Source: a candidate division FCPU426 bacterium (lineage in GTDB: Bacteria; Oederibacteriota; Muellerivitia; Muellerivitales; Muellerivitaceae). Taken from it: 64,000 bases of DNA. This document shows positions 7,302-47,032 of this stretch, piece after piece. Position 1 is the first letter of the stretch, and each line of letters starts with the position of its first letter. Made by a program: the position numbers and the translations under genes. The notes below the pieces were generated by a model, which ran no database searches, was not told where the DNA came from, and worked only from the letters and a program-made list of their open reading frames with translations. The stretch is taken from positions 45,244 to 109,243 of the forward strand of contig CAWKAR010000039.1 of NCBI GenBank assembly GCA_963847625.1, given 5' to 3'.

Positions 7302-7955
7302 ATGCGAGCATTTCTTTGGATTCTCGGAATTCTTTTTTTATTGGCCTTGGGATACGCCCTCGTCACTGGATTGGGATTGGGGGGAGTTTTCAAGCACCAT
7401 AAAAACTTGGCGAAGAGTTTTGTGATCACGGATTTCGAATATCCCGCCGACGATTTCGACTGGATGACCGGGGGTTACGTTAAAATCGAACCGTCAAAGG
7501 AAAACCAGACTCACGGCAAACTTTGCGCGAAGGCCACTTTCTTCCTGGAAAATCAGTTTTTCCCAACGCCCACGCCGGGCGCCGACTGGCGGCCCCAAAT
7601 GGCGCTGGACACCAATTCGGTCACCCAACTGAAGGTTTACGAGTGGCAGGAATATGCCGACCTGAAACTGGATGTCTTTAATCCGCAAGATCATCCGGTC
7701 ACCTACCATATGGAAGTGGCGGATTCCCACGCTTATGTTTTTTCCGACATCTCTGGGCCGCTGACCCCGAAAAAAGTCACCAACATCGATGTCCCCTTGG
7801 ACCAGTTGATCCAAGCCCGGCTGGATTTAAGCAATATCCGGTCCATCAAGTTTTGGGTGGATATGGCGGGGGCCACAGAACCCATCGTGGTTTACCTGGA
7901 CTACCTGCGCCTGGAGGGCGACGCAACCGCGCCCAAGCCAGCCGTTAAACATTAA
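7302..7955 (+). CDS. Membrane-anchored CBM-like (jelly-roll) protein, paralog of the lipoproteins at 15052/23642/24590
   Basis: ORF 7206..7955. The likely start is ATG 7302 (MRAFLWILGILFLLALGYALV TM anchor). Shares motifs ITDFEYPADDFDW near the N-terminus and FWVD...VVYLDYLRLEG at the C-terminus with the other family members. Confidence 0.5.
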   Translation: MRAFLWILGILFLLALGYALVTGLGLGGVFKHHKNLAKSFVITDFEYPADDFDWMTGGYVKIEPSKENQTHGKLCAKATFFLENQFFPTPTPGADWRPQMALDTNSVTQLKVYEWQEYADLKLDVFNPQDHPVTYHMEVADSHAYVFSDISGPLTPKKVTNIDVPLDQLIQARLDLSNIRSIKFWVDMAGATEPIVVYLDYLRLEGDATAPKPAVKH

Positions 7956-8581
7956 TCAAAAATCCAGTTCTGATTAATTCAATGTTTCAATTCTTAGCAA
8001 GTTATTTTGCCCTGAAATCCAATCGAATCTCTTGATTATAAGGGTTTCTGGTTTAACCTTCCTAAGATATAAGTTCTAATCAATCCTTAACCTGCGATTA
8101 GATTTGTCCTTAATTTTTATTCCTGAAAAGAAGCAATTGCGAATCAATTTTTTCTTCGTGGACGTATATCGGCTTGGAAAAGTTCATTTAAGAAACAACA
8201 AGGTTAATGCCGTCAACGACTAATGATCGGTTTTGAAACTGATGGTTGCCTGCTACCAGAATATATCTAATCAGACTGTACGTCCTAGAGACATTACTTT
8301 TCAGCCATTTTACGGACAGGACGATCTGAAAAGAAGATTTGTCAATCTGGAAGGAAACGGGAAATATCCCAAATCAGTTAGTCGAATTGAAAACGGAAAG
8401 TATAATTAAGCTATGAATAGCCTGCCGTCATGCCCGAAAAAGTTTATTCGAAAAGTTTCATGAAAAATTTTCTCCATATTTCGTTAAGGTAATAAGCCAT
8501 GGAAGTCTTTTTGAAGAATTTATTAATTCGTGAGATCTGATTTATAAAATAAAAAAGAGATTACGAAAATAAAAGAGTCTT

Positions 8582-9751
8582 ATGAATCAGATGCATTCAG
8601 GCCGAATTGAGGTTTTGGATTCCTTGCGCGGCGTTGCAGCTATGCAGGTGGTATTCAATCATTTTTTGATCGTGTTTCCTCTTTTTTTTGAAGCGACCCT
8701 CCACCTAGCGTCAAATCAACCTTTGATGGCGAAGTTGATGGTTTATACGCCGCTCCATATCCTATGGGCGGGGCATGAGGCTGTTATCTTCTTTTTCACT
8801 TTGAGCGGATTTGTTTTGTCCTTACCTTATGTGAATAGGAATCCACTTTTTTACCGACCCTACCTGATTAGGAGATTTTGCCGAATTTATATTCCTTTTT
8901 TCACTCTTATTTCTCTCTCCCTTATTTTATATAAGAGGGGTCTAGGTTTTTTTGCGATTCCAGGTGTCAGCTGTTGGACTAACAGTTTTTTTTCTAAAAC
9001 CATCACTTGGCGGGAAATGCTGAAAATCTATACCGGGTTCGACGATATCTACACCTATAACTTGGCTCCCACTGTTTGGAGTCTAAACCACGAGATGCGC
9101 ATCTCAATTGTTTTTCCCTTCTTGGCTAACATGGTGGTGAAATTAAATTGGAGAGAAAATTTGGGAATGGGTTTTTTGTTAGCAGCTCTAGGAGGGGGAT
9201 TGATCAATGAGAAAATATTATCCGCTGGAGAATTGAATAGAACATTTTTCTACACCTCTTTTTTTATCTTTGGGGCCCTTCTGGCGAAACATCGGGATTG
9301 GGTTTTAGGGGCCATTGGGAAATACAATGGCGGCCTAAGAACATTGTTCTTAGCCTCTGCTTTAATCTTGTATAACATTCGCTGGTCGGGATTGGTGGAA
9401 GAAAAATCATCTTTTTCCCCTGTTGGTCATGAAGTTTTCTGCGATTTGTCAGTAGGACTGGCGTCACTTTATTTCATCGGTGCGTCTTTGGGATGGAAGC
9501 TAAATAAAAAGAATTTTGTTCAAGGAACCTTTTTGTGGATTGGGAAAATTTCCTTCAGCCTTTATTTGATCCATCCGTTGATATTATTCATGAGTATTTA
9601 TTATTTTAGGCATTTCTTGCCAATAATCATTAGCGACTTCCTGGGTTTGTCCTTTGCAATATTTGTGGCTTGGCTTTTCTATCGTTGGATAGAATGTCCT
9701 TCCACACAATTGGGTAAAAAACTTTCCAAACATTCCATTTTCACGGGCTAG
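8582..9751 (+). CDS. Acyltransferase family 3 (OafA/NolL-like) integral membrane O-acyltransferase
   Basis: 389 aa, about 10 predicted TM helices, N-terminal LDSLRGVAAMQVVFNHF typical of PF01757. The gene sits in a low-GC island (7956-10545). Confidence 0.65.
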   Translation: MNQMHSGRIEVLDSLRGVAAMQVVFNHFLIVFPLFFEATLHLASNQPLMAKLMVYTPLHILWAGHEAVIFFFTLSGFVLSLPYVNRNPLFYRPYLIRRFCRIYIPFFTLISLSLILYKRGLGFFAIPGVSCWTNSFFSKTITWREMLKIYTGFDDIYTYNLAPTVWSLNHEMRISIVFPFLANMVVKLNWRENLGMGFLLAALGGGLINEKILSAGELNRTFFYTSFFIFGALLAKHRDWVLGAIGKYNGGLRTLFLASALILYNIRWSGLVEEKSSFSPVGHEVFCDLSVGLASLYFIGASLGWKLNKKNFVQGTFLWIGKISFSLYLIHPLILFMSIYYFRHFLPIIISDFLGLSFAIFVAWLFYRWIECPSTQLGKKLSKHSIFTG

Positions 9752-9820
9752 AAAGAAATTCCTAAAACTAAAACCCAATTCATTTATGGGAACCTCTAAA
9801 AATTCATTTAAGCCCTCGCC

Positions 9821-9912
9821 CCTTGAGGGAGAGGGTAGGGTGAGGGGTAAAAAACCTCGCTATTTCCACCCTCATCCCATCCTTCTCCCCTCTAGGGAGA
9901 AGGGGAACGGCA
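9821..9912. repeat. GC-rich imperfect palindromic element (REP/MITE-like) in an AT-rich intergenic region
   Basis: ccctcgccccttgagggagagggtagggtgagggg ... accctcatcccatccttctcccctctagggagaagggg forms two related purine/pyrimidine-skewed arms capable of extensive hairpin pairing. Confidence 0.4.
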
Positions 9913-10545
9913 ATTTATAGAGGTACCCTTATTCAGAAGCAGTTGAAATGCTTAAGGAGGTGAGTGTTCTTTGAATATTCTTGAAAATCTGGATTGTAAT
10001 GATGATAGATGTTTGCCGGCGGGAGAGGCGCAGAAATATTCGCGAGAGAATCTATTGGCATCATGCCCTGGTGGTGTGGCCCATTTCCCAGGCCGAACGC
10101 ATTTCTTTGTGCCATTCTGGACTCACTGTCTCCAGTGATGAACAAGATATGACTCTATGACCGGGTTCCTTTTTAAAACAAGTTTTAGAGCATTCGAGTA
10201 ACCCGATTTTAAAAATAAGGCTAGCATTTATCCTATCTTTCAGACTATGGACAGACCAAATCATTGTTCCATATGCACAATTAGTTGTGGGTAGCACCCC
10301 TAGGTATGCAGTTTGTAGCTTAAAAGGGGTATGGACCCCTGAATAGGTAGAGCATTAACCCCAAAACCCCGGTTGCCCTGCCTGAAATAACGGTTAAAAT
10401 AATTTTGTGCAATAGGACGGGAACCCAGTTGCAAGAAAATTAAACAAATAACATAGGTTTCGATAAATATTTTTACGGAAGATTTACCCGTTTAACCCAG
10501 CTTTTATTGATACAGGAATCTGAAAGGTTGACCCGAAAAACTTGA

Positions 10546-13500
10546 ATGGAAACCAAATTCGTTAAACCCGTACGCTACGGCGACATCATCGAAATCGACA
10601 TCCACTCCCTCGCCTTCGGGGGGGATTCAGTAGGCCGTTACCGTGATTTTGCCATATTTGTCCCGGGTGGGCTCCCTGGCGAGAGGTTGGCCGTAAAGAT
10701 CACCCGGGTCAAGGACCATTTCGCTACGGGTGAGATTGTCAACTTCCTCAAGCGTTCCCCGGACCGCATTGTCCCAGGTTGTCCCGTATTCGAGGAATGC
10801 GGTGGGTGTCAATGGCAGCACCTACACTATTCCCGACAGCTTCAAGCCAAGCGCCAGTTCGTCGTGGATGCTTTTCAAAGAATCGGGCATCTTTCCAATG
10901 TAGTGGTACAGCCCAGTCTGCCTTCGCCCAATCCATACGCTTACCGCAACAAAGCCCTGCCGGTTCTTTCGATGCGGGAGGGTCATTATGTTTCCGGGAT
11001 CTACGAACCCCGTTCCCACCACTTAGTGCCCTACCAGACATGCCCCATTCAGGGAGACGCCGTCAATGACCTGATCCAAAAAGTCCTGAATAAGATCGAT
11101 CGTTCCGGTTTGACGCCCTACCAGGAAAAAAAACACATAGGTTTTTTAAGGCATTTGGCTGTCCGTCAGGGATTGAAAACGGGCGAGATGATCTTGTCCT
11201 TTATCACCCGCGCAGAGGTGCCTGAGGAACGGCTTCAAAAACCCGCCTTGGTACTGGAATCCCTGGACCATGTCCTGCCACGTCTTGCGGCGGAGCTTAT
11301 GGAGGAGATTCCCGGCCTGGTCGGCGTCCTACAAAACATCAATCCTTCCCGCACCAACGCTGTATTCGGCTCCACCACGCGTCTCCTCGTGGGGCGGGAC
11401 CACTATTTCGAGGTTATCGATGACCTCCGGCTGAGAGTCTCTCTGATGTCCTTCCTGCAGGTCAACACTCTTCAGGCGGATATTCTTCACACCGTCGTCA
11501 GGGAGGCATTGGGAGAACCGGCTCACAAGAAAAAATGGGGGATCCTGCTGGATCTTTTCTCCGGCCTCGGCACCCTGGCCTTGGCTGTTTCCCAAAAGGT
11601 TGATTATGTGGTGGGCATCGAGGAATCAGCCCCCGCCGTGGAAGACGCCAAATTCAACGCGACGTTGAACCAACGGGACAACATCGATTTTCTGGAAGGC
11701 GACGTGGGCCGTGTTCTCATGGGTCTCAAGGAAAAAGGATTAACGCAACTGGACGCTGCGATCATGGACCCTCCCCGCAAAGGAATCCTGCCGGAAGTCC
11801 TGGCACGGTTGACGGCTTTCCACCCGGAAAGATTGGTTTATGTATCCTGTGACCCTTCCACGCTGGCTCGGGATCTTTCCCTTTTAACTAAGCACGGCTA
11901 CTCGGCTGATTGGGCCCAGCCTATCGACATGTTTCCCCAGACCTATCACGTTGAAACGGTGGTGAGACTTACCCGGCAAAAACCTCTCTCCCTTGAGACT
12001 ATGACCGGCCTTTCGGAACAAGCGCTGGAACCTTTCCGTCTTCCCAAAACGGAACCTGTAGCCCTCAATATAAAGGGTTCCTTCGAGGCGCTCTGGAAGG
12101 GGTTGGCCCTGGTATTTCAATCCATGGTGGAACTTCTTGCCAAAGGAAAGGTTAAAGTTCGTCTGTTCTTATCGGTTATGCCCTTAGGATTTAAAAAAGT
12201 TTTAAGTGCTGCTAACTTTATTTACCTCCATTCCCTTAAAACGATCCTTTGGGTATTAAAAATAATCCCAATCACATTCCGATTATTCGCTGGTTTGTTT
12301 TGGCACATGAAAAACTCGTACAATAAATTAGTTTCGGAGAAAAAACTCACCCAGGACTACGATGACTTTTCCCCGACTCCAACCGAAATCGCGAGGATGG
12401 AAGAAACCATTACAAAACCGACCCCGATTCTTTCAGAATGGGTTGAAACTCCATTCCGGGAAGAGTGGGAAGAAGAAACCGCGTTACAACCGCCAGAGGG
12501 CCCAGAGGAACCTCTTTCATCTATTCCGGCTTCCGGGGTGGTTTTATCGTCCTCTTCCATCCAAGAATTAGAGAAAAATGAAATTTCAGAGGGAGAGCTT
12601 TCCTCCGTTCCAGAGACCGGACAGGAACCGCTCCCGGAATGGCCTACTCCGCCACCTTTTCCTAAGCCTCTGACGGCACCGCTCTGGGAAAAATGGAAAT
12701 GGCTTTATAGATCCTTTTTTAAGAGGTCCTTATTCCGTTGGACGGTTTTAGCGGTTCTTTTTTTAGGTATCGGCGCTTATTGGGCCAAAGCAACCCTTTC
12801 ACCCTCCCGGCCCAAAAATTGGCTCCAGGCTCCCACTGTTTCCCAGATGATCCCGGACGCAATCGCCGTCATGCCCACCCGAACCTTCCTTCGCTACGAA
12901 ATGGTGCCCTTTGAGGTGAGGGTGAACCCGAAGAACCAGGCTTATTTCTCGGATATACACGCCTCCGTGGAGATTTTCTGTGACGGTGAACCTGTCAATA
13001 TGGTAGACGGCAGGTCCAAGTTGTATTTAAAAAAAGACCAGGCTGGAAAGAAACTCCTGGGTAATTGGCCGATTCCTTATAATCCCAAGGCTGGCACTTA
13101 TATTGCCGAGATAGCCATTACTTCGCCCCAGTGGCAAACCCCCCATACCTTCGAATCCGCCTTCACCATCGCGCCATTGAAACCGCATGGGCTTTATCCG
13201 GGTTATGCCGCCCTTACCATGGAGGGGGGGAAGCAATTAGTCAACGGGGCGATTCCTCCCCTGGACGGGAACGGATCTTCCAATACCTCCAATGCCATCG
13301 ACTGGGCGAAATTTATCGGTGCCAATCTGTTCTGCGATTTAATGGGGCAGACTTCCATTTGGGACCACCTCGTCAAGGCGGATTTTCCATTCAACCGGCT
13401 TGAAATTGAAACAGGCCACCGATACGCCCGCGCCGCACACGCCAAAGGGTTGAAGTTCGCCAGTTACATGACCACCTTCAAGGTGGAAGGCGACGCCTGG

Positions 13501-14691: not shown

Positions 14692-15051
14692 AATGTAATT
14701 TTGAAAAATAGGGACATCAGAATAGTTTTAGAGCATCTTAAATTGTTTAATCAATTGCCTTGTTCGATATTTCCTTGTTATGTCAAATCTGGAGTTTTAA
14801 GGATGTTTCCGAAGGCCCGATTTGACGCATTTCACGGCGGTTCGGAGTTATTTTTCCAATCAATCAGTATAAATGGAAAAGTAAAATTCAATGCCGGGCT
14901 TGTTTAACGGTAATAAACCCAATGAAAAGGGTTTTAAATAAAAGGTTCCCGGAATATGCGTTCTTTTGAATTTTCTTAAAAAAAGATTCCAGCTTTTCCA
15001 AGCTTTTTAGTAAAATACCGGCGTTTTCCCTCACCATTCTTTTCACGAAGG

Positions 15052-15825
15052 GTGTTTATGGCCTCCTCCAAATTTCTAGCCGCCTGTGGAATCTTGGGGT
15101 TTATTCTTTTGGCCGGATGCGGGGCAGTTTTTGTAAATGAAGGCTCAAAGAACGCTTCCTTGGCCCACGGCTTGGCCAATCCCGAAAAAAACACAATAAA
15201 AGTAAACGTCACTAAAGATGCTTCTGTCATTTCTAATTTCGACGACGGCTCCAATAATGGGAACCCTAAACTTTTCGGCGACGGTTCGGGAACATGGGCT
15301 ACCATGACCTGGGCCGGAAACGCGGTCAACAGCAATTTCGTGGTAAAAGGGGGTGCCAACGGCACCAAGATGGCCGCCCATGTGTTCGGCAGTCTGACCG
15401 ACAAGGGTGATGCTTCCTACCCCGAATTTGACCTGCAATTCAATTTCAAGGGAAAAGACTTGTATGACGCCAGTAATTTCGCGGGTATTAAGTTTTATTA
15501 CAAATGTCCCGCGGCCGACCAAGCCCTCAAACGCCGTTTCAATATTGCCACCGCGCCCACCCTTCCTATGTCTGACGGTGGAACCTGTGAGTCGGCTTGT
15601 TACAACCATTACGGCGCCAATTTGAAGCCCATTTCAGACTGGACGGCGTTGTCCTATAATTTCAGCGATTTAACCAGGTTACCGGGTTGGGGCTCGCCAG
15701 TGGCGCCTCCCGAGTTGACTGAACACTTGAAGGAATTCATCTATATTAAGTGGGGTCATTCCGCGGACAACGCGGCTGGGACTTATACCATCGACTATTG
15801 GGTGGATGAGGTGGAGTTTTTCTGA
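15052..15825 (+). CDS. CBM-like lipoprotein (first gene of the OMP operon)
   Basis: Lipobox LLAGC after an N-terminal signal sequence. SNFDDGS near the N-terminus and YTIDYWVDEVEFF at the C-terminus (carbohydrate-binding-module-like jelly-roll signature). Confidence 0.6.
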   Translation: MFMASSKFLAACGILGFILLAGCGAVFVNEGSKNASLAHGLANPEKNTIKVNVTKDASVISNFDDGSNNGNPKLFGDGSGTWATMTWAGNAVNSNFVVKGGANGTKMAAHVFGSLTDKGDASYPEFDLQFNFKGKDLYDASNFAGIKFYYKCPAADQALKRRFNIATAPTLPMSDGGTCESACYNHYGANLKPISDWTALSYNFSDLTRLPGWGSPVAPPELTEHLKEFIYIKWGHSADNAAGTYTIDYWVDEVEFF

Positions 15826-15873
15826 TTGTTGTTTCTATAAGTTTTTGCCCTAGTTTGACTTTAGGAGTTTTTT

Positions 15874-18800
15874 TTGAAATTTAGCTTTAAAATTTTTATA
15901 ACGTCCTTTTTCTTAAGCCTTTTTTCTTTGGCCACCGGAGCGGGTTTCCTTTTGGCTGATCCAATGGAAAACGTGGGACCCGACCAGAGTCTTTACCAAA
16001 GGGTGAAGAAGCTAGCGGATTTAGGCCTGTTAGACCCCCAGGACCAAGCGGTCCTGGATCAGGGGAAAATAGTCACCCGCCTTGAGTTGGCTTTCTATAC
16101 CGAGAAAGCCGCCGCCAGGATTGAGGCGCCTCAATTGGCATTGCCGAGTCCTACTCCTGAAGTTGTCGCACCGGCTCCGACGGAAGCGCCATTGCAAATG
16201 CCTCCTATTATTTCTGCTCCAGAATTGCCTGCTCCAGCACAACCGGCAACGGCGTTACCCTTGCCTGAAAACACCCCTGTTTCCGCTCAGCCGGCTTTAG
16301 AACTTCCAGCCCCGTCATTGCCCCCGCCGGAAAATACACCAGTTCCACCTTCGGTATTACCGGCACCCTTGCCTGAAAACACCCCGGTCTCCGCACAGCC
16401 GGCTTTAGAGCTTCCAGCACCAGCATTGCCCCCGCCGGAAAATACCCCGGCTCCGCCTCCGGCTTTACCGGCACCAGCGCCACCTTTGCCCGAAAACACT
16501 CCTGTCCCCGCCCCACCGGCTTTAGAGCTTCCAGCTCCTTCATTGCCCCCGCCGGGAAATACCCCGGTTCCGCCTCCGGCTTTACCCGAGCCGGCATTAC
16601 CTTTGCCGGAAAGCACTCCGGTTCCAGCTCTTCCAACACCTTCAACTCCTTCTCCCGTTGTTACTCCTGTTACCACGCCCATAGTCACTTCTGTTCCCAC
16701 ACCGGCTCCCATACTCCCGGAAGCCACCGGTGCCTTGAGAAATGAAATCCAAGATCTGCTGAAACAACTTCACGCGGAGGCGGTTTTTCTTCGCTCGCGT
16801 TTAAGTCTAGATGATCCCCGCATTAAAGCCCAGGAAGACGAGTTGGATAATCTCAAAAAAGTACAAGATGAAGTGGATACCACCTGGAAAAAGGCCGACA
16901 AGTCGGCGGGCATCCCCAATTTCAACACCAACATCAATACCCGATTCGAAAACATCAATGTTTCCGGAAGCCTTGCCACCGAGAGTGTCTCAAAGGCCTT
17001 GGAAGAAATCTGGTGCGGGATGTACTCGGACCTGGGGGGCAAAGGGGCTCTCTCCCTTGGGGTGGGCGGGATCTTGCCTTATGACAACGCCTCTGCCAAC
17101 TATGACTTGTGGGGTGTGTACGGCACAGGACCCGTATCCCTTTATATCGGCAACCCCAGCTGCACTTTGGACCTGTATGGAGACTTGGGCAAGTGGGACA
17201 CCACCTTTGCGGTTGAAGCCTACCAACCCGACACTACTTACGGCGATTTCAGCCGAGGTTACGCCAATAATTCTCTTAAAAGGTTCGAGAATCCTTGGAA
17301 CATTAAGAGCTTCAACGACGATAAGAACGCAAAGAACTGGGACGATTTCATGAGTAACATCAGCTACGTTCCAAGCTATTCCCCGACGGCCGGCAATGTG
17401 CAATCCACCAGCGACCGGGTTATTGATGGTATTTATGCGGTAGGGAAAAATGTGCCTTGGCTAGCCCCGGGAGGACGCATGTGGTTTCTGGCGGGCCGGA
17501 TGGGTGAAACCACAACCCAAAGCCTTCGCTGGGAGGAGGGCGCCAAAATCGACCAGCCTTGGGCCCACAATCTTATTCGGACCGCTATTTCCACCGAGTG
17601 GGTGAACGACAATTTCGGCGTAAGCAACCTGCCCATGACACCCCAGCTAGATATGAAGGATTACTCGGCCGACATCCATTTGAACCTGACCCCCGTCTTA
17701 TTCGATATCGAAGGCGGGTTTTCGCAATTCTACACCGGCAGCGTTTATCCCGGTCCTTCCTATATTCAATCGGGCCTTCTTCAGCCTGATTCCGATGTCA
17801 TTCAGGCGGGCGCGGGCCAAGCCTCCCTGGCTTTTTATCCTCTCACTTTTTACTACTTTGCTATCAGCGAGAATTACGCAGACTTCATGAGCAAAGTCAC
17901 CATGAGCGGGTTCAATTTCTTCCATCACGGGCTTTATTTCAATCCCAGCGATTTCCAAGATGTTTATGGCGCCATTGGGGAAGTAGATAACCTTCAATCC
18001 GACCGGTACGGTTGGAGGGCCAACTTGGGATGGGACGGCCGGGAACAGGATTGGATGAAGAACTGGCCTAGTTTCCTGGATACCTTTATCATCAACTTTG
18101 ACTTGTCCGAAAAGAAAGAATATGTCGCCGAGCAGGGGCAAGAGGGTTGTTTCATGGTGGAACCCACCCAAATGCTAAGCTTTTACTATCCGGACGATGA
18201 GGGTTTGTGGGGTTTGGACCTGTGGGGAAATTACGCCCCCAACGTGAATCCTTTAAGACAGACTTACATCAACAATATTGAACAGCAACGCAACGATGGG
18301 GACATCGTCAACGACGACGTGCGGTACCAGTTTAGGATGACCAGCGAGAGGCTTCCCCTAATTATGCCTATGTATGTTCAAAGTGTAGTGGTGAGCGGTG
18401 GCATCCCCGTTACAACCTATAGTCTAAATCCTGTAACAAATGGACAACCGCCTGCGACTAATAACGGGCATAATATATATGCCAATATCACCGATCTTAA
18501 AACGTACGACTACATAACCTTATCCGCCAAGCTAAAAATGGACAAGTGGTTCGGCTTGAAGACTCCCATGGACGGATTCTTCTTCGTGACCGACAACAAA
18601 GTTTCGGGTGTTGCCTCCAACGCCACCACGGTCCTTCCCACCAGCACTACTATCAACAACATAACACCCACCATCACCGTTAACATCCCCAATCTTTTTG
18701 AACAGTTGGTCTACGATGGATCCATCATGATTAACGCGGTCAAGAATGTGGATTTGATGGGGGACATAGGGGTCGAAACCTGGAAGTCGCAATATACCTA

Positions 18801-18975
18801 CCCCCAGGTGGATTATCGCACTAACGATTATGGACTAGGGCTTGCCTACGACATTCCTTGGGGCGGGGCCAAGTTGGAATTCCGCTATAAGTACCTTGAA
18901 TTCCACGACAATTACGTTCCCGGGAACAATTATTCCGGAAACCAGTATTTCTGCAAAGTTAAGTTTTTGTTTTAA
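15874..18975 (+). CDS. Outer-membrane protein paralog 1 (OmpM/Slp-like): signal peptide, one SLH-like motif, Pro-rich tandem-repeat linker, coiled coil, C-terminal beta-barrel
   Basis: TTG start with AGGAG RBS. Signal peptide. YQRVKKLADLGLLDP...IVTRLELAFYTEKAA is SLH-like. 3.5 copies of a ~36-aa Pro-rich unit. Heptad-like EIQDLLKQLHAEAVFLRSRL...LDNLKKVQDEV. About 650 aa beta-rich region ending KVKFLF. Confidence 0.65.
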   Translation: MKFSFKIFITSFFLSLFSLATGAGFLLADPMENVGPDQSLYQRVKKLADLGLLDPQDQAVLDQGKIVTRLELAFYTEKAAARIEAPQLALPSPTPEVVAPAPTEAPLQMPPIISAPELPAPAQPATALPLPENTPVSAQPALELPAPSLPPPENTPVPPSVLPAPLPENTPVSAQPALELPAPALPPPENTPAPPPALPAPAPPLPENTPVPAPPALELPAPSLPPPGNTPVPPPALPEPALPLPESTPVPALPTPSTPSPVVTPVTTPIVTSVPTPAPILPEATGALRNEIQDLLKQLHAEAVFLRSRLSLDDPRIKAQEDELDNLKKVQDEVDTTWKKADKSAGIPNFNTNINTRFENINVSGSLATESVSKALEEIWCGMYSDLGGKGALSLGVGGILPYDNASANYDLWGVYGTGPVSLYIGNPSCTLDLYGDLGKWDTTFAVEAYQPDTTYGDFSRGYANNSLKRFENPWNIKSFNDDKNAKNWDDFMSNISYVPSYSPTAGNVQSTSDRVIDGIYAVGKNVPWLAPGGRMWFLAGRMGETTTQSLRWEEGAKIDQPWAHNLIRTAISTEWVNDNFGVSNLPMTPQLDMKDYSADIHLNLTPVLFDIEGGFSQFYTGSVYPGPSYIQSGLLQPDSDVIQAGAGQASLAFYPLTFYYFAISENYADFMSKVTMSGFNFFHHGLYFNPSDFQDVYGAIGEVDNLQSDRYGWRANLGWDGREQDWMKNWPSFLDTFIINFDLSEKKEYVAEQGQEGCFMVEPTQMLSFYYPDDEGLWGLDLWGNYAPNVNPLRQTYINNIEQQRNDGDIVNDDVRYQFRMTSERLPLIMPMYVQSVVVSGGIPVTTYSLNPVTNGQPPATNNGHNIYANITDLKTYDYITLSAKLKMDKWFGLKTPMDGFFFVTDNKVSGVASNATTVLPTSTTINNITPTITVNIPNLFEQLVYDGSIMINAVKNVDLMGDIGVETWKSQYTYPQVDYRTNDYGLGLAYDIPWGGAKLEFRYKYLEFHDNYVPGNNYSGNQYFCKVKFLF
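16252..16650 (+). repeat. Intragenic tandem repeat (~108-nt unit, ~3.5 copies) encoding the Pro-rich linker LPENTPVSAQPALELPAPSLPPPENTPVPPxxLPAP
   Basis: Near-identical nucleotide units are visible at 16258, 16375, 16490 and a partial copy at 16600. Confidence 0.8.
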
Positions 18976-18992
18976 CCTTTTGAAAAGGATTA

Positions 18993-21275
18993 TTGGATAA
19001 GAAAGAAATGAAAAAAGGCCTTCAAATTCTTATAGGGTTTCTTCTCTTAAGCCCGGCATTGCCTGCCCGGGCTGATCATGGGCGTTTGGCCACGAATATC
19101 CGGGATTCCTGGATTAATCTGGGCGTGGCTGAATTGGTATCATCAGGATTGGCACAGGACCCGGGTAAGCCCATCAACCAATTGACTAACCTCGAAGTGG
19201 CTCAATTGACGGCCGAGGCCTCCCAAAAATACCTGGCCCAAGCCGATCTCAACCTTCCGGCCCCGCCTTCCGCCGATGAGCCGGCCCTGCCGCCGGAACC
19301 TCCTGCGTCCCTGGCCGCACCCCCGCCCCTGTCGGGAATGGATTCCACGGCAACCCCACAAACCACCCTTCCCAGCAAGAGCATGACGGATCTTGTAGCG
19401 GAATTCCGGAATGAGCTGAGCGCCATGGGGGTTGATGTGGATAAATTGGAACAAAGAATAAATGATTCCAAGGCCCGAAATGAGGTTTTCGCCGCACTCC
19501 AACAAAAATACCTAAAACGAACCGGAACGGATTTGGGAGGGTTCTCCAGGGGTTTTGTCTACGACTACCGGGGATTCGGCACCAATGCGGTCTATCCTGC
19601 CATGGAATATAACGCCGCCATGTTCATGGAGTGGGATTTGAAAAGCATCCCCATCCCCACCGTTTTGTTTGATGCGCGCATGAGGCTGTGGCGTTCCATG
19701 GGCATGTATTACCAGGACCCCTTCGAGCCTGACTATCAACTCAGGTGGATTTCCTTAACGGATTACAATGATTTCGCCAGTTTCACCGCCGGAGACTTTT
19801 TCAAAAGCTATACACCCCTGACCCTTTGGAATTACGAAGTGCCCGTTTACACCTTGGTGGAACCGGCATCCTTCCACCGGGTTCGTAAGGATACGGAAGA
19901 ACTGGCTTATGTGGACCATGGCTCGGACTGGCACATGAGGGGAATCCAGGCTTCCACTTCCTTTGATTGGCCCAAGGAAATGTTCCTCAGCGGGTTTGGT
20001 TTGCAGGCCATGGTGGGAACCATGATGAACGGGGGAGGTTTCAGTTTCAGCAGTTATTACGCCGGAACCCAGGGGTCCATCAGCCTTTTCAACGATTTCT
20101 TGACGGTCAAGGGCACCGGATTGCGTCTTTGGGACGATATCAATTCAGCAAATCCAAACATCGACCAAAACCTTTATATTCCATCCGCCTTTCCGAAGGA
20201 ATACCAAATCGGAAGCCTGACTGGTTCCGTCTCATTCATTTTCAGCGACAAAGCAGACTTGGTCGGGACCGTTGAGGGTGCTTTCAGCCAATATTATGAC
20301 GACCTGTACGACACTTCGAGGGAATTCCAGGATTGGGCAATACTGGGCAACGCCTCCTTGGATATTCAGGGGGTCCACTTCACCGGCAAGTACCTCAATG
20401 TCGGCCCGAATTTTTATTCCCCTGGGGCTCAAACCAACCGGTATACCCCGGCGGCCGGCTTTCAAGGCTACTGGAGCACGACCATGAACGGGGTGGATGA
20501 CGCCTTGCCGGGTTACTTGGACGACTTCGTGTTCCAAAACGTCAGTCGGCCCTCTTTCGCTCCCTACGACCGTTTATCCGAGAATTTTCTTCCTTATGGG
20601 GATTCCTCGCCAGACCGGAAAGGCATCGTGTTGGGCTTTTCGGGCGAATTGGGGGATAACAAGTGGCTGAAGCCGCAAGCTTCTTATCTTCTCAACGCCC
20701 AGGAAATCCAACCCAATTATGTTTTACAGAGTAGCAACAGCATCATCCCTGTGGACAGCAACACCACCACGACGGTGGCCCGTGTTTTTGGCGGCTATGA
20801 GGGGGCCTTGACTCTGGATTTCGCGAAAGCCTTAAACATGAAAGGGAAGACCTATGACCTCCAATTCGATTACAAACACCAGACCACGGATTTAGGCGTG
20901 GGAGCGAGCCCCTTTACAGTTAATACTATTATCGCGGCCGTGGATTTCAACATACCCCTTCATTTCGCATCCCGCTTGGTTTGGTCCGCATCCTTGGAAC
21001 AGGCCCAAGCCAGCGGCAGCGAGTACGTATTGTCAGGCGTTGGTAGTCCACCGACCTTGGCAAATTATGCCTTCTATCTGGACCCTCAGAACCAATTTAT
21101 CTATCAGTCTTTGAACATCACCCGGGACATTTTGGCCTTGGGGGCCATGTACCCCATCAGCGACAAAATCGATCTTCGATGCGATTGGTTTTTCGTGGAT
21201 TACAAGTGGACTGACAACCCTGACTTCGACCGCAGGGACCAAATTTGGAGAATGACGTATGAAGCGCATTTCTAA
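18993..21275 (+). CDS. Outer-membrane protein paralog 2 (OmpM/Slp-like)
   Basis: Signal peptide (alternative ATG at 19008). SLH-like WINLGVAELVSSGLAQDP...LTNLEVAQLTAEA. Pro-rich linker, coiled-coil segment, and a beta-rich C-terminal domain homologous to the paralogs (shared Y..D.NDF..F.AGDF..SYTPLTLWN; NVGPNFYSPGAQT). Ends TYEAHF. Confidence 0.65.
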   Translation: MDKKEMKKGLQILIGFLLLSPALPARADHGRLATNIRDSWINLGVAELVSSGLAQDPGKPINQLTNLEVAQLTAEASQKYLAQADLNLPAPPSADEPALPPEPPASLAAPPPLSGMDSTATPQTTLPSKSMTDLVAEFRNELSAMGVDVDKLEQRINDSKARNEVFAALQQKYLKRTGTDLGGFSRGFVYDYRGFGTNAVYPAMEYNAAMFMEWDLKSIPIPTVLFDARMRLWRSMGMYYQDPFEPDYQLRWISLTDYNDFASFTAGDFFKSYTPLTLWNYEVPVYTLVEPASFHRVRKDTEELAYVDHGSDWHMRGIQASTSFDWPKEMFLSGFGLQAMVGTMMNGGGFSFSSYYAGTQGSISLFNDFLTVKGTGLRLWDDINSANPNIDQNLYIPSAFPKEYQIGSLTGSVSFIFSDKADLVGTVEGAFSQYYDDLYDTSREFQDWAILGNASLDIQGVHFTGKYLNVGPNFYSPGAQTNRYTPAAGFQGYWSTTMNGVDDALPGYLDDFVFQNVSRPSFAPYDRLSENFLPYGDSSPDRKGIVLGFSGELGDNKWLKPQASYLLNAQEIQPNYVLQSSNSIIPVDSNTTTTVARVFGGYEGALTLDFAKALNMKGKTYDLQFDYKHQTTDLGVGASPFTVNTIIAAVDFNIPLHFASRLVWSASLEQAQASGSEYVLSGVGSPPTLANYAFYLDPQNQFIYQSLNITRDILALGAMYPISDKIDLRCDWFFVDYKWTDNPDFDRRDQIWRMTYEAHF

Positions 21276-23658
21276 AATAATCCTCTTTTCATTCATAGGC
21301 TTTTTCCTGGCTCAGGTGAAAAGTGTGGCTTTGGCGGGCGACAACCTTTTCACGGTTGTCCCGGCCAATGACTCGACCTATGAGAGCCTCCAGCAACTGG
21401 AACAAGCCGGGTTGCTGACTTCCGGATCTTCCCGCGCGCCCCTTACGCGTTTTGAGGTTGCCGGGCTTATCATGAAAGCCCAGAAAAAATACGACGAGAT
21501 CGTCGTAGCCGATTCCGATTTGGATCTTCCGGCCCCTTCGGATATGACAATCACCCCACCTATTTCCACTCCCACTCCTGCTGCGGCTGCACCTGCGGCG
21601 GCTGTTCCCGCTAAAACGGCAGTTCCCACGCTCTCACCCACGCCTGATGAGGCGGTTGTGCTGGCACAGGCATTGAAAAGCCTGCACAACCTGAAGGAGG
21701 CCTATCAATATGAACTCGACCGCGTAAAAGGCGATGTGAAAATGACGGAAGACCAAGAAACCACCGTGGAAAACTCACAATATGCCCTTTGGAAACGTCT
21801 CCAGGGAATCACTGAGTACCCCACCATCACCTGGCATGGGCTGGGGAGAGCTTTTGGTATTTCGCGGCAATACTGGGGCGATCCGGCATATTCCTCCTTG
21901 GGTTCAGCCGAGCGGGAAGGTTTCGGTTACCTGGATTTTCAGCCCATAGGGGTGGTTTCTAAACAAGTTCGGTGGGACGCGGTTTTGAGGTATCAAACGG
22001 CTTTTGAGTCGAACAACTATCCCGGCATCGATTGGTTGTTGTTCCGCAGAGCGACCATGGAATTCAATCCTTCCTGGTTTTCCGCTACAGTGGGGGATTT
22101 TGAGGAATCCTATACGCCTTTGACCCTTTGGAACCGAAACAACCTGGATCTGCGTTACATGCCCGAAATGTACCAGCGCGCCGACGATACTTACAAATAT
22201 GAAAATTACCTGAACCAAGAGCCGGATTGGCCGTTCCGGGGCGCTCGCGTGGGAACCGCACTATTGTGGCCCGAATCGGATCTTATGGACCAGTTTAAGG
22301 TTTCCGTCATGACGGATATGATCCGGAATGCTTTCGACGATAACAATAAGGTTGGTGTTTTTTACGGTTTCGACCAATTCACCGGCTGGATTGTCGGAAC
22401 CAACGGCGAGATCAAACTAAAAAGGTGGTACTTAGGCGGCGGAACCTCCCTCCAACTGGCATTGGACGCCTATGGACTGTTATTGGATGATCCCCTGAAC
22501 ACCAACAAGCCTGGAGCTCCCTATTCTCCCTATAACCCGGATACTTGGGGCCATCAATACCGGATTTCCAGTCTCAAGCCTTCCGTAGACGCCGGGGTTG
22601 GAGGGGATACGTCCATCGGGATGGTTTGGGAGTGGGCTTCCGTCACATATGTGGACGACAAAATGGATTCATTGAAGAATATGGAGGATTATGCGGTGAT
22701 GGGCGGACCCTATTTGCGGTTCGGCAAATCAAAAATATCATTCAATTACCTGAACGTCGGCCCCTATTTTTATTCTCCCCTGGCCCAAACCCGCCAGGAC
22801 GAGGTTTCAGCCCCTACGGCAGCCTCGCCGGTGGCATCCGGATTCTTGCCGACTTCCGAGCTCTTTACACCCGCCTTGCGAAGCCGGTTTTTCCTCAGCG
22901 ATGTGCCCCGGCCAGGTGAAATTTACAGTTTCTACGACCGGACCCAGGATAATACCTTCCCTTATGGATTGGGGACTCCCAACCGTCAGGGAACTGGTTT
23001 TGAAGTGGACGTTAAAACCCTTCCTAAGGATTCATTGAAAATCCTTGGATCGGTCTATTTTGTACAGGAAATCAGTGGTAACCTTGTTGTGGACAGCGCT
23101 GGAACGGGTTATGTGCCTGTGGACGCACCGCCATTTGAGACGGTTCCCGTCCGTAATTTCACCTATGTGAATATTGGATCTTCATTCAATTTGGGACCCG
23201 TCATCGGAATGGGCCGGGATTTGGTACTGGGGACCAATGTCCGTTACGAAAAAACCACCAGTTCGATTGGGACCTTAACCAGTATTTGGGTTTTAGGGGG
23301 GGTGAAAATCGGGGTTTTGGATGGATGGGATGTTTCCGCATCCTACGGGAGTCAAGCGGTCACCGGAACGGAAGCTGGTTATGTTTACGCTGATTCCACC
23401 GGGGTTTCGCACCAAACCTTTTTGGCCCGTTATCCCTATCTTTTCGACAATTCCGATTTGGGCTATTACCAACCATTTAGTGTCAACGGTACCAACCAGA
23501 GCGTCCAGCTGTCCAGCGAAGTCCGGACAAGCCGGAATACGAGGTTTTACGCGGATTACGGCTTCACCAGTGGCGATGTCGTACCCTATGTGGGGACTGC
23601 CAACACGGGGACCTTGCATAACGAGTTTATGGAGTTGACTTATGAAATCCAATTTTAA
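21259..23658 (+). CDS. Outer-membrane protein paralog 3 (OmpM/Slp-like)
   Basis: 17-nt overlap with the upstream gene. Signal peptide. SLH-like YESLQQLEQAGLLTS...LTRFEVAGLIMKA. Ala/Pro-rich linker, coiled coil, beta-rich domain with the same conserved blocks (VGDFEESYTPLTLWN; NVGPYFYSPLAQT). Ends LTYEIQF. Confidence 0.65.
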   Translation: MKRISKIILFSFIGFFLAQVKSVALAGDNLFTVVPANDSTYESLQQLEQAGLLTSGSSRAPLTRFEVAGLIMKAQKKYDEIVVADSDLDLPAPSDMTITPPISTPTPAAAAPAAAVPAKTAVPTLSPTPDEAVVLAQALKSLHNLKEAYQYELDRVKGDVKMTEDQETTVENSQYALWKRLQGITEYPTITWHGLGRAFGISRQYWGDPAYSSLGSAEREGFGYLDFQPIGVVSKQVRWDAVLRYQTAFESNNYPGIDWLLFRRATMEFNPSWFSATVGDFEESYTPLTLWNRNNLDLRYMPEMYQRADDTYKYENYLNQEPDWPFRGARVGTALLWPESDLMDQFKVSVMTDMIRNAFDDNNKVGVFYGFDQFTGWIVGTNGEIKLKRWYLGGGTSLQLALDAYGLLLDDPLNTNKPGAPYSPYNPDTWGHQYRISSLKPSVDAGVGGDTSIGMVWEWASVTYVDDKMDSLKNMEDYAVMGGPYLRFGKSKISFNYLNVGPYFYSPLAQTRQDEVSAPTAASPVASGFLPTSELFTPALRSRFFLSDVPRPGEIYSFYDRTQDNTFPYGLGTPNRQGTGFEVDVKTLPKDSLKILGSVYFVQEISGNLVVDSAGTGYVPVDAPPFETVPVRNFTYVNIGSSFNLGPVIGMGRDLVLGTNVRYEKTTSSIGTLTSIWVLGGVKIGVLDGWDVSASYGSQAVTGTEAGYVYADSTGVSHQTFLARYPYLFDNSDLGYYQPFSVNGTNQSVQLSSEVRTSRNTRFYADYGFTSGDVVPYVGTANTGTLHNEFMELTYEIQF

Positions 23659-24550
23659 CCGGCAAAAAGAAACCAGAATCCCTGTCCGGAAGACCCTTTC
23701 GGTCCGAATAGCAATCGGTTTTGCTATCGCTTTAATTCCATTAATCGCAGGTTTTTTGGGCTGTAAAAACAGCGTGCCTTCTTATGGAACCTATCCTGAC
23801 CCTGGTTCCACCTTGGACTGGAGCACGGTGGCTAATTTTGATTCCAATTCCGCCACCGTCAACCCGAACCTTTTTGAATCGAGTAATCCCCCCACCTACA
23901 AGTTGAAAACGGTGGGTGGCGCTGTTACGGCGGTAAACGACTGGTCGGCTTACATTACTATATCTTCGAACCCACCCACTGTGCAAAACAACACCGTTGT
24001 CCTCGGCGGGGCTACCACTTTGACGATCCCATTTGCACCCTGGTTGGACAGTCCCGGAGCGGCCGGCACATCTCATGCTTTCCACGTGACCGGCGCGCTC
24101 ATAGACCCGGGAGATTATTCAAGCTTTGACTCGGTGAAATTGCAAGCTCAGATGGAGGGAGGCGGGTTTTATGACGCCAGTTTTTTCACGGGGGTCAAGT
24201 ACTACCTGAAGGTGGCAAGCGACGACAGCACGCTTTACCGTTTTTTCAGCATCCCGGTTTACCAGACAACCAGCCCCGTTGGGGGCGGTGGATGCATGGG
24301 CGGGCCGAGGCTTTGCGACGATTCTTTCGCGGCGGATTTCAGCAGCGGCACCGGCGGCCAATGGAAACTATTCAGCTATAAATTCTCTGATCTGCATCAA
24401 TTGCAACCCGGTGTCATCACGAATCCGCCCACTTTGAGCGGGGTCAACCTTCAGCAGATATTTTTCTTGGAATGGGACGAGGGCAGGAACAATCAACCCG
24501 GTGTTTCATATTTTGATTTTTGGGTGGACGACATCGAGTTCTTTAAGTAA
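23642..24550 (+). CDS. CBM-like lipoprotein
   Basis: 17-nt overlap with OMP3. Lipobox IAGFLGC. VANFDSNS ... FFTGVKYYLK ... WKLFSYKFSDL ... FDFWVDDIEFFK. Confidence 0.6.
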   Translation: MKSNFNRQKETRIPVRKTLSVRIAIGFAIALIPLIAGFLGCKNSVPSYGTYPDPGSTLDWSTVANFDSNSATVNPNLFESSNPPTYKLKTVGGAVTAVNDWSAYITISSNPPTVQNNTVVLGGATTLTIPFAPWLDSPGAAGTSHAFHVTGALIDPGDYSSFDSVKLQAQMEGGGFYDASFFTGVKYYLKVASDDSTLYRFFSIPVYQTTSPVGGGGCMGGPRLCDDSFAADFSSGTGGQWKLFSYKFSDLHQLQPGVITNPPTLSGVNLQQIFFLEWDEGRNNQPGVSYFDFWVDDIEFFK

Positions 24551-24589
24551 CGGGGAGTCCGACATCAGGTTTGACCCCGGGAGGTTATC

Positions 24590-25507
24590 ATGAAAGGCAT
24601 ATGGCTTCGGACATCGTTGGTTTTATTTTCCGCGGTATTTACCGCGGGAGTATTGTGGCTTTCCCAGGGCTGCAATTATCAAATACCGTCCTTGGCGGCG
24701 GCAGTGGCCACTCCCCAGGCCACGAACGTGGTCAGTAATTTCACAAACGGTTCCTTGAAGATGAACCCTTCGTTAAAGGGTGCTGACGGCGGTTATTTCC
24801 AGCAGATCACCTATGGGGGAGCGCCGGGGCTCACCAACATGATCAACAACAGCCTCCAGCCCAATATCCTGGAGGCGAATCCCGGGAACGGAAGCAGCGT
24901 ATACGCGGTCCATCTTTACGGGGCGCAGTACGACTATTGCGCGACAGGCCTCGGTTCGTCCACTTACCCCGCCTTCTTTCTTTACGGTTTCTTGAGCAAC
25001 GATCCAGTGAAGCATTATCTCTTCGACCTGAGTCCATTTACAGGCGTCAAGTTCGATATCAATATCAAGATCGATGATGGAGTGGTTCTCGGCACTCAAA
25101 ACACCACCAAAACCCAGGATGGTGCTTATCAAAGAATGTTCGCCATCGGCGTGGCCCAACAAACCCCTCCCACCAACGATCCGGGAGGCATTTGCCCTCC
25201 CTCCTTCAGCTCCAATTGCTATGACTATTATTGGGGGGATAGTAGTGCCTTTCCCGGCCCCGGGTCGGGATGGAGTCCGGTCAGTTTCCTTTTTTCCAAT
25301 TTGACAACTTCGACTTGGGGCGTAAACCTTGGTGCCTTGACTGACCCTTGCAACGGCACAATTAACTATTCCGGAGTTTCTCTCCCTTGTCCATCCAGCG
25401 GTAGTATGCTCACACAGGCCCTTTTTCTCATCTGGAAATTCGGAGACAACGGCGCCTGCCACAACGTTTATGTGGATTTTTGGGTGGATAACGTCGCGTT
25501 TTATTGA
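24590..25507 (+). CDS. CBM-like lipoprotein
   Basis: Signal peptide with lipobox LSQGC. VSNFTNGS ... FTGVKFDINIK ... WSPVSFLFSNL ... YVDFWVDNVAFY. Multiple Cys pairs. Confidence 0.6.
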   Translation: MKGIWLRTSLVLFSAVFTAGVLWLSQGCNYQIPSLAAAVATPQATNVVSNFTNGSLKMNPSLKGADGGYFQQITYGGAPGLTNMINNSLQPNILEANPGNGSSVYAVHLYGAQYDYCATGLGSSTYPAFFLYGFLSNDPVKHYLFDLSPFTGVKFDINIKIDDGVVLGTQNTTKTQDGAYQRMFAIGVAQQTPPTNDPGGICPPSFSSNCYDYYWGDSSAFPGPGSGWSPVSFLFSNLTTSTWGVNLGALTDPCNGTINYSGVSLPCPSSGSMLTQALFLIWKFGDNGACHNVYVDFWVDNVAFY

Positions 25508-47025: not shown

Positions 47026-47032
47026 GAAAACG

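Follow-up and report, generated by a model that had tools for sequence, protein, structure and literature searches.

Within a 64,000-nucleotide stretch of contig CAWKAR010000039.1 from a candidate division FCPU426 bacterium (this whole stretch is the window, to which all coordinates refer), we identified a six-gene operon, LP1-OMP1-OMP2-OMP3-LP2-LP3, in which genes for three paralogous lipoproteins with a predicted CBM11-like fold (CBM, carbohydrate-binding module) flank genes for three large proteins that probably resemble the envelope protein OmpM. A first-pass annotation of the same DNA had described four proteins, LP1–LP3 and the product of a gene starting at position 7302, as a lineage-specific family of surface glycan-binding proteins. 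That description overlooked the three OmpM-like genes between the lipoprotein genes, and the conserved, multi-copy operon that combines the two protein types is a more interesting finding than the lipoprotein family itself. We hold the fold, the remote homology and the operon structure, taken together, with high confidence, and the cassette suggests a previously undescribed device for the capture and uptake of glycans.

All four of the originally noted open reading frames (ORFs) are present on the plus strand, and three of them are unambiguous paralogs. LP1 (15058..15825), which preferably starts at the ATG at 15058 and not at the GTG at 15052 (a 100%-identical database protein, P0001, has 255 aa), LP2 (23642..24550) and LP3 (24590..25507) are stand-alone proteins of 255–305 aa with no enzyme module. 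They align to each other over nearly their full length at 26–30% identity, with BLASTP E-values of 2e-26 for LP1 and LP2 (30% identity), 4e-18 for LP1 and LP3, and 3e-13 for LP2 and LP3. The motif blocks quoted by the first-pass annotation are common to all three proteins, in the forms V(I/A/V)(S)NF(D/T)xxS, F(A/T)G(I/V)K(F/Y) and W...S(Y/F)xFS(D/N)L, followed by a C-terminal D(Y/F)WVD(E/D/N)(V/I)(E/A)F(F/Y) that reads DYWVDEVEFF in LP1 and DFWVDNVAFY in LP3. As expected for bacterial lipoproteins, each begins with a signal peptide or hydrophobic segment followed by a lipobox cysteine (LLAG↓C in LP1, FLG↓C in LP2 and an atypical SQG↓C in LP3), and the lipobox residues G22 and C23 reach a conservation of at least 90% in the LP family. 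LP1 also carries an invariant CxxxC pair, LP2 is fast-evolving and LP3 contains extra loops.

The AlphaFold2 model of LP1, built with a 55-sequence alignment, is confident (pLDDT 88.4); in it, the signal peptide is followed by a linker of ~30 disordered residues and then by a beta-sandwich that extends from about residue 55 to the C-terminus. In a Foldseek search with LP1, the top four matches were all entries of CtCBM11 (E = 9e-8 to 2e-6), followed by CIA30/NDUFAF1. CBM11 was the best structural match by two methods, with a clear margin and at ~20% identity, and the predicted jelly roll is superposable on CtCBM11. According to the structure predictions, all four proteins, including the one encoded at 7302, have a CBM-type, CBM11-like beta-sandwich; the earlier proposal of a CBM-like jelly roll therefore holds, with CBM11/CIA30 as its nearest family in place of CBM4/9/22.

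The same relationship emerged from profile searches. A narrow LP1 profile matched none of the PDB sequences, whereas a broad profile (A7, a 66-sequence alignment spanning the diversity of the family) matched CtCBM11 in the PDB sequence set with E = 8e-5 over CBM11 residues 59–168. An exhaustive search with the LP profile retrieved 1819 cluster representatives (clustered at the 50% identity level) at E ≤ 1e-3, including 414 at E ≤ 1e-10, and some of these relatives are long proteins of several domains in which this one occurs two to five times. Two relatives, P0150 and P0208, pass the Pfam thresholds for CBM_11 and CIA30, and in P0150 the Pfam match and the LP-profile match cover the same region. 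A third relative, P0218, carries two such domains and a type IX secretion signal behind a GH8 enzyme (GH, glycoside hydrolase). Judged by these matches, LP1–LP3 are divergent members of the CBM11/CIA30 superfamily, in a branch that escapes the curated models.

The prototype of CBM11, CtCBM11 from Clostridium thermocellum Lic26A-Cel5E (PDB 1v0a, 6r3m), is a type B module that binds beta-glucans (PMC4416756). In the HMMER alignment with the A7 profile, an aromatic residue and a histidine are kept at two CBM11 positions, with Tyr129 corresponding to the near-invariant Trp of 'GWG' (W213 in LP1) and His102 to the His of 'CYNH' (H186 in LP1), and the last CBM11 strand 'VVDNIKLI' has its counterpart in 'WVDEVEFF' of LP1. 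Both positions are among the cleft residues of CtCBM11, which we take to be Tyr22, Tyr53, Tyr129, Asp99, His102, Arg126, Asp128, Asp146, His149 and Tyr152; the list reportedly goes back to Carvalho et al. 2004, and its numbering agrees with the printed sequence. A further likeness is that distant LP relatives are appended to GH8. In contrast to CBM11, LP1–LP3 are free lipoproteins that stay below the curated Pfam threshold (CBM_11, PF03425), and their domain is longer (~200 aa vs. 170 aa), with a disulfide-type CxxxC loop and other long loops. As stand-alone proteins, they also lie outside the CAZy definition of a CBM as a module of a carbohydrate-active enzyme for which carbohydrate binding has been demonstrated. 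The second structural relative, CIA30/NDUFAF1 (Pfam PF08547), differs from LP1–LP3 in being a mitochondrial or soluble complex I assembly factor with no lipid anchor, and no complex I-related gene is located near the LP cassette.

The three genes between LP1 and LP2 encode OMP1 (15874..18975, plus strand, 1033 aa), OMP2 (18993..21275, plus strand, 760 aa) and OMP3 (21259..23658, plus strand, 799 aa). OMP1 and OMP2 consist of a signal peptide, an SLH-like domain, a Pro-rich linker (short in OMP2), a coiled coil and a C-terminal region of ~690 aa in OMP1 and ~585 aa in OMP2, which is presumed to form a beta-barrel; OMP3 has an OMP2-like architecture. In all three, the sole hydrophobic segment is N-terminal, Cys is almost nil (0.4% in OMP1), and the C-terminus is a Phe preceded by alternating hydrophobic residues (KVKFLF in OMP1, MTYEAHF in OMP2 and LTYEIQF in OMP3); these traits speak for a barrel only indirectly. 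OMP2 and OMP3 are paralogous over their full length (E = 3e-37), and comparison of the OMP1 and OMP2 families by hhalign gave a probability of 97% and E = 3e-11 over the SLH domain and the coiled coil. A T-R-x-E motif is present in the SLH-like domains of OMP1 (as TRLE) and in OMP3, and T-N-L-E in OMP2.

No Pfam or NCBIfam model, Pfam SLH included, matched OMP1–OMP3. The family profile of OMP2 (A4) matches OmpM1 of Veillonella parvula (8bys/8bym/8byt/8bz2) with E = 3.6e-8 over the SLH domain and the stalk (query 2–142), and that of OMP1 (A9) matches OmpM1 (8bys) with E = 1.9e-5 in the SLH region. PDB entries 8BYS, 8BYM, 8BYT and 8BZ2 represent V. parvula OmpM1, and OmpM serves both as an outer-membrane tether and as a nutrient channel (PMC10628300). 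The combination of an N-terminal SLH domain and a coiled-coil stalk that characterizes OmpM is found in all three OMP proteins, which share with OmpM1 and the related Deinococcus SlpA the signal peptide, the SLH-type domain, the stalk and the C-terminal Phe. Unlike OmpM1, whose barrel comprises ~300 aa, they have C-terminal regions of 585–690 aa with no detectable similarity to it, and they carry Pro-rich inserts between the SLH domain and the stalk. Also unlike OmpM, they occur as three distinct paralogs, always in a fixed order, and are always co-encoded with CBM11-like lipoproteins, a pairing unreported for OmpM. From their sequences, OMP1–OMP3 are probably OmpM/SlpA-like proteins with an SLH anchor, a stalk and a large presumed beta-barrel.

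The Pro-rich linker of OMP1, located between the SLH domain and the coiled coil (residues ~85–290), is far longer than those of OMP2 and OMP3 and consists of ~200 residues in imperfect repeats (…LPxPENTPVxxxPALELPAPxLPPP…). Across loci, OMP1 ranges from 796 to 1038 aa. How far the outer membrane lies from the peptidoglycan could depend on this linker.

All six genes lie on the plus strand and form a single operon. Successive genes are separated by 48 nt and 17 nt, then overlap twice by 17 nt (the start of OMP3 with the end of OMP2, and the start of LP2 with the end of OMP3), and LP2 and LP3 are 39 nt apart; the OMP2/OMP3 overlap is kept in related loci. LP1 is preceded by a 366-nt AT-rich intergenic region (14692–15057). 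The sole block conserved in the upstream regions of seven orthologous loci is TTTTAGTA(A/G)AAT (15004–15016, plus strand), which contains a −10-like promoter motif, TAGTAAAAT (15008..15016), ~40 nt upstream of LP1. Many loci, among them the paralogous cassette L005, carry the same motif in front of LP1. A generic scan for sigma-70 promoters and terminators gave no more hits than shuffled sequences. A second conserved element, 'GTTTAACGGTA(A/T)AAACC...ATGAAAAGGGTTT' with the arms AAACCC/GGGTTT, precedes LP1 by ~100–150 nt in several type-A loci (window 14850–14950), where type A denotes orthologs of the window copy; it could terminate the preceding gene or be bound by a regulator.

In scans of genomes and metagenomes, the order LP1-OMP1-OMP2-OMP3-LP2(-LP3) was present in every related locus of sufficient length, which makes roughly 25 loci, with LP identity down to ~31%; in none did LP1–LP3 occur without the three OMP genes. 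Homologs of LP1, OMP2 and the 7302 protein are exclusively proteins from metagenome-assembled genomes (MAGs) or metagenomes, and the nearest genome relative of the window is a 'candidate division FCPU426' MAG with 84% identity in LP1. Within type-A loci, the order of genes is LacI, 7302-like gene, a fusion ORF that includes RlmD, the cassette and LepA. Among paralogous cassettes, LP1 is the most conserved component (53–58% identity vs. 38–51% for the OMP proteins); LP2 and LP3 are the most variable (27–46%, with LP2 orthologs at 33–46%), and some downstream lipoproteins were recognized only with a broad profile. A MAG labeled 'uncultured proteobacterium' also contains a locus with complete type-A synteny (L002, CAWIIP010000002.1), in which the core cassette proteins show 53–65% and LP2/LP3 43–46% identity; its taxonomic label is probably wrong.

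In bacteria of the FCPU426/Goldbacteria type, the cassette recurs as a module, with several divergent copies in a genome. Loci L001 and L005 are located on one 1.6-Mb contig, and pairs of locus tags from single MAGs include VHE12_00795/_11920, VK859_13495/_08695 and VIJ93_12580/_07100. The surroundings of these copies are often related to carbohydrates. The L005 cassette is adjoined by GH44, GH2 and an F5/8C-ASD1 protein; the L007 cassette by GH44, GH31, SASA and an ABC sugar-binding protein (SBP_bac_1); and the L009 cassette by galactokinase (GalK) and a weak match to NTP_transferase. Large F5/8-type-C proteins neighbor L027, L028 and L031, with AraC-type regulators in L028, a LacI gene lies downstream of the cassette in L037 and L039, and transposases are neighbors of L008. 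One batch of 45 flanking ORFs comprised five GH44, four GH2, six F5/8C, three AraC and one CBM_11 proteins. The family is thus not confined to non-carbohydrate contexts, the outcome that the first-pass annotation had named as speaking against a glycan-binding role; its relatives are fused to GH8 and its genes lie beside GH44, GH2 and GH31, and its predicted fold is similar to that of beta-sandwich CBMs.

The fourth protein of the first-pass annotation (7302..7955, plus strand, start ATG at 7302) has an N-terminal membrane helix and no Cys, so that the earlier count of three lipoproteins and one membrane-anchored protein is correct. As a member of a four-protein family, however, it could not be retained. 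BLASTP gave only E = 0.05–0.36, a comparison of sequence with profile a probability of 0.8%, and the comparison of the two family profiles (45 vs. 55 sequences) a probability of 4.7%; on these grounds it was rejected as a sequence relative of LP1–LP3 and kept as a relative in fold. It belongs to a separate family of 108 homologs. The terminal WVDD motif ascribed to it resulted from a match out of register, since its 'KFWVD' is located on the penultimate strand (model 179–186) with 30 further residues after it, and the strand that matches 'DYWVDEVEFF' is 'VVYLDYLRLEG' (model 195–207). The 7302 protein may be a periplasm-facing glycan-binding protein.

Directly upstream of the 7302 gene is a LacI-family regulator (6016..7044, plus strand; Pfam LacI and Peripla_BP_3), and a 7302-like gene adjoins the LacI gene in all type-A loci. 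This adjacency, from which sugar-responsive control was proposed, concerns only the 7302 gene. Of the generic LacI/CcpA-type palindromes, two were found in the window, no more than expected by chance, and none in the relevant intergenic regions; an inverted-repeat scan of three intergenic regions gave no convincing candidate. LacI control of the LP cassette was rejected, as neither scan revealed a LacI-type operator there; the cassette has a promoter-like motif of its own. These observations bear on the original model, in which the four proteins are independent, lineage-specific surface glycan-binding adhesins, partly under LacI control and with no porin complex. The CBM11-like fold predicted for all four proteins and the constant adjacency of LacI and the 7302 gene agree with it, as does the adherence to cellulose of an organism from the candidate phylum to which FCPU426 has been linked (PMC7031533). 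The model is nevertheless improbable, given that the 7302 protein has no detectable homology to the others and would, being anchored in the inner membrane, face the periplasm and not the cell surface, that LP1–LP3 always accompany the OMP genes, with overlapping stop and start codons, and that no LacI-type operator was found.

Import by a binding lipoprotein together with an outer-membrane channel, as encoded by polysaccharide utilization loci (PULs), is best characterized in Bacteroidota, where the channel is the TonB-dependent SusC. We favor the reading that the cassette is an OmpM-based, PUL-like outer-membrane module for glycan capture and uptake; resting as it does on genomic inference, we give it about an even chance. 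The shared operon of OMP and LP genes, together with the location of other copies beside plant-polysaccharide-degrading enzymes, is what suggests such a device. In the mechanism that we propose, of which the barrel fold, complex formation, the location of the lipoproteins, the ligand and its transport are all inferred, OMP1–OMP3, joined by their coiled coils, would make up an OmpM-like trimer or perhaps heterotrimer that tethers the outer membrane to the peptidoglycan and supplies large channels. The membrane-tethered CBM11-like lipoproteins would bind poly- or oligosaccharides of the beta-glucan type and concentrate them at the OMP channels, making the pairing a functional analog, on an OmpM scaffold, of the SusD/SGBP lipoproteins with SusC. 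The role of core partner would fall to LP1, the most conserved component, and the adjustment of specificity to the fast-evolving LP2 and LP3; the cassette copies would have diversified beside different sets of enzymes.

The fixed triplet of coiled-coil OMP proteins, matched in the window copy by an equal number of lipoproteins, invites the speculation that the heterotrimer has dedicated partners. In its furthest form, which we put forward as a doubtful possibility, the complex would be an obligate 3+3 assembly in which a heterotrimer of three different OmpM-type proteins shares one coiled-coil stalk, is anchored to peptidoglycan and has a lipoprotein of its own for each large barrel. With its copies diversified next to various glycoside hydrolases, such an assembly would embody the PUL principle, invented independently and free of TonB in the FCPU426/Goldbacteria lineage, and would underlie the adhesion of this lineage to cellulose. 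The cassette resembles the PULs of Bacteroidota (SusC/SusD with SGBP lipoproteins such as SusE/F and SGBP-B) in the co-encoding of a putative outer-membrane channel with putative glycan-binding lipoproteins, in the presence of several divergent copies per genome beside GH genes and AraC/LacI-type regulators, and in the fast evolution of the partner lipoproteins. Unlike in PULs, the presumed channel proteins are SLH-anchored and belong to another phylum; the relation is one of analogy and not of membership. Among the cassette proteins, no Pfam match to TonB-dependent transporters, plug domains or SusD was found, which places the cassette outside the SusC/SusD definition of a PUL. The FCPU426 cluster of 16S sequences has been linked to the candidate phylum Goldbacteria; one member, captured by cellulose binding, encodes 24 copies of CBM11, more than of any other CBM, and GH5, GH8, GH9 and GH44 are abundant in most Goldbacteria genomes (PMC7031533). 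The literature library that was searched contained no paper linking OmpM with polysaccharide utilization and none describing these lipoproteins.

A number of observations weigh against a role in glycan capture and uptake. On the side of the lipoproteins, Pfam and NCBIfam scans returned no model for the four proteins even with the cutoff at E ≤ 1 (the search against Pfam that the first-pass annotation proposed as a check accordingly came back empty); the CxxxC pair is an insertion exactly at CBM11 Asp99–His102, and the binding site may therefore be remodeled; the cleft residues Tyr22 and Tyr53 are unmapped, because only the C-terminal half aligns to CBM11, and the use of the P0208 domain as an intermediate for them (phmmer) gave only a non-significant match to SGBP-B; and the fold also serves in protein-protein roles, as in CIA30/NDUFAF1, MAM domains and the sheath protein FlaA1. 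On the side of the OMP proteins, the C-terminal regions are about twice as long as the OmpM barrel and show no sequence similarity to it or to any PDB or Pfam entry. With regard to genomic context, the window copy lies amid housekeeping genes, with the RlmD fusion upstream and LepA, LepB and the DnaK operon downstream, and no recognizable glycoside hydrolase adjoins it, while the counts of flanking ORFs exceed the number of independent associations because many of the loci are orthologous to each other. Finally, Lol is restricted to Gracilicutes and OmpM occurs in Terrabacteria (PMC10628300), so that the lipoproteins may stay in the inner membrane, facing the periplasm.

The lack of curated matches and the remodeled loop would be accounted for if the lipoproteins had no glycan role at all, sharing only the galactose-binding-domain-like fold and either binding another ligand (protein, lipid or metal) or serving as an inert spacer. 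This explanation is very improbable in view of the top rank of CBM11 by both structural methods, the ability of the family profile to reach CBM11 by sequence alone, the relatives that are fused to GH8 or pass the Pfam CBM_11 threshold, and the conserved aromatic residue at the Tyr129 position.

The genomic context and the question of lipoprotein location also agree with a module of envelope architecture, in which LP1–LP3 would be structural or assembly partners of an OmpM-like tether and not nutrient receptors. Anchored on the periplasmic side of either the inner or the outer membrane, they would bind peptidoglycan, a secondary cell-wall glycan or the OMP proteins, and would either reinforce the link between the outer membrane and the wall or act as plugs or chaperones of the barrels, comparable to LptE with LptD or CIA30 with complex I. 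The housekeeping neighborhood of the window copy, with the same synteny across the lineage, is consistent with this, and LP1 is more conserved than the OMP proteins, as would be expected if its role were structural; next after CBM11 among the structural matches comes CIA30, itself an assembly factor. Moreover, lineages with OmpM reportedly lack Lol (PMC10628300), the long disordered stretch that follows the lipidated Cys would be suitable for a tether across the periplasm, and the invariant Cys pair fits an extracytoplasmic structural protein. Nonetheless, such a module leaves unexplained why several divergent copies of the whole cassette are present per genome and why GH44, GH2 and GH31 enzymes, AraC/LacI regulators and a sugar-binding protein are among their neighbors, and the fusion of homologous domains to a secreted GH8 is a classical use of CBMs. 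We therefore consider a purely architectural role possible but rather unlikely. It should be noted that the uptake and architectural readings are not mutually exclusive.

Several other features of the window deserve mention. The ORF located just upstream of the cassette, in the window as in all type-A loci, is a single 1381-aa frame (10546–14691, plus strand) whose residues 1 to ~480 constitute a complete 23S rRNA methyltransferase RlmD (TIGR00479, E = 2e-117). It continues stop-free through a conserved 'EPFRLPK' linker and a hydrophobic segment (residues ~566–585) into a highly conserved C-terminal domain of ~640 aa, and it is kept as one ORF of 1265–1491 aa in 13 related loci. The joining of a cytoplasmic rRNA enzyme to a membrane or extracytoplasmic domain is odd. 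The C-terminal 640 aa (12769–14688) were considered as a hidden glycoside hydrolase, which would have given the window copy a PUL-like setting, but a PDB profile search and a Pfam scan of 12 orthologs gave no match. Between the 7302 gene and this fusion, a segment of low GC content (8001–10000; 0.39 vs. ~0.51 around it) carries an Acyl_transf_3 ORF (8582–9751, plus strand), which L001 and L002 lack at this site; in several other orthologous loci, the site is occupied by another ORF, of 453–506 aa and on the minus strand. The position looks like a variable insertion point.

Further downstream, an 811-aa protein (39375–41810, plus strand) has an F5/8 type C (NedA-like galactose-binding) domain as its sole Pfam match, and proteins of 842–968 aa, likewise with an F5/8 type C domain as the sole match, are encoded directly upstream of the paralogous cassettes in L027, L028 and L031. 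These proteins may represent an unrecognized glycoside hydrolase family. At the other end of the window is a 1579-aa autotransporter (15–4754, plus strand; beta-domain E = 4e-51, PATR repeats, GC content 0.58–0.60), which, together with a GT9 heptosyltransferase (38161–39054, minus strand), points to a diderm envelope of the lipopolysaccharide type. Two tandem DUF1207 genes (46159–47902, plus strand; 288 and 299 aa) follow a GT4 glycosyltransferase.

The double role of OmpM as an envelope tether and a nutrient channel was shown recently, and if the favored reading of glycan capture and uptake is true, the multi-copy cassette of CBM11-like lipoproteins and OmpM-like proteins joins this theme with that of the PULs. 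Should the architectural role apply, the OmpM tethering system would turn out to have new accessory components in these lipoproteins. Standard annotation also misses a branch of the CBM11 superfamily with at least 1819 cluster representatives at 50% identity; the CBM counts reported for such genomes are probably underestimates, as this branch escapes both Pfam and NCBIfam. For the organism itself, a cassette acting in glycan uptake would provide a testable model of how plant polysaccharides are captured in a little-known candidate phylum from soils and peat that is associated with cellulose.

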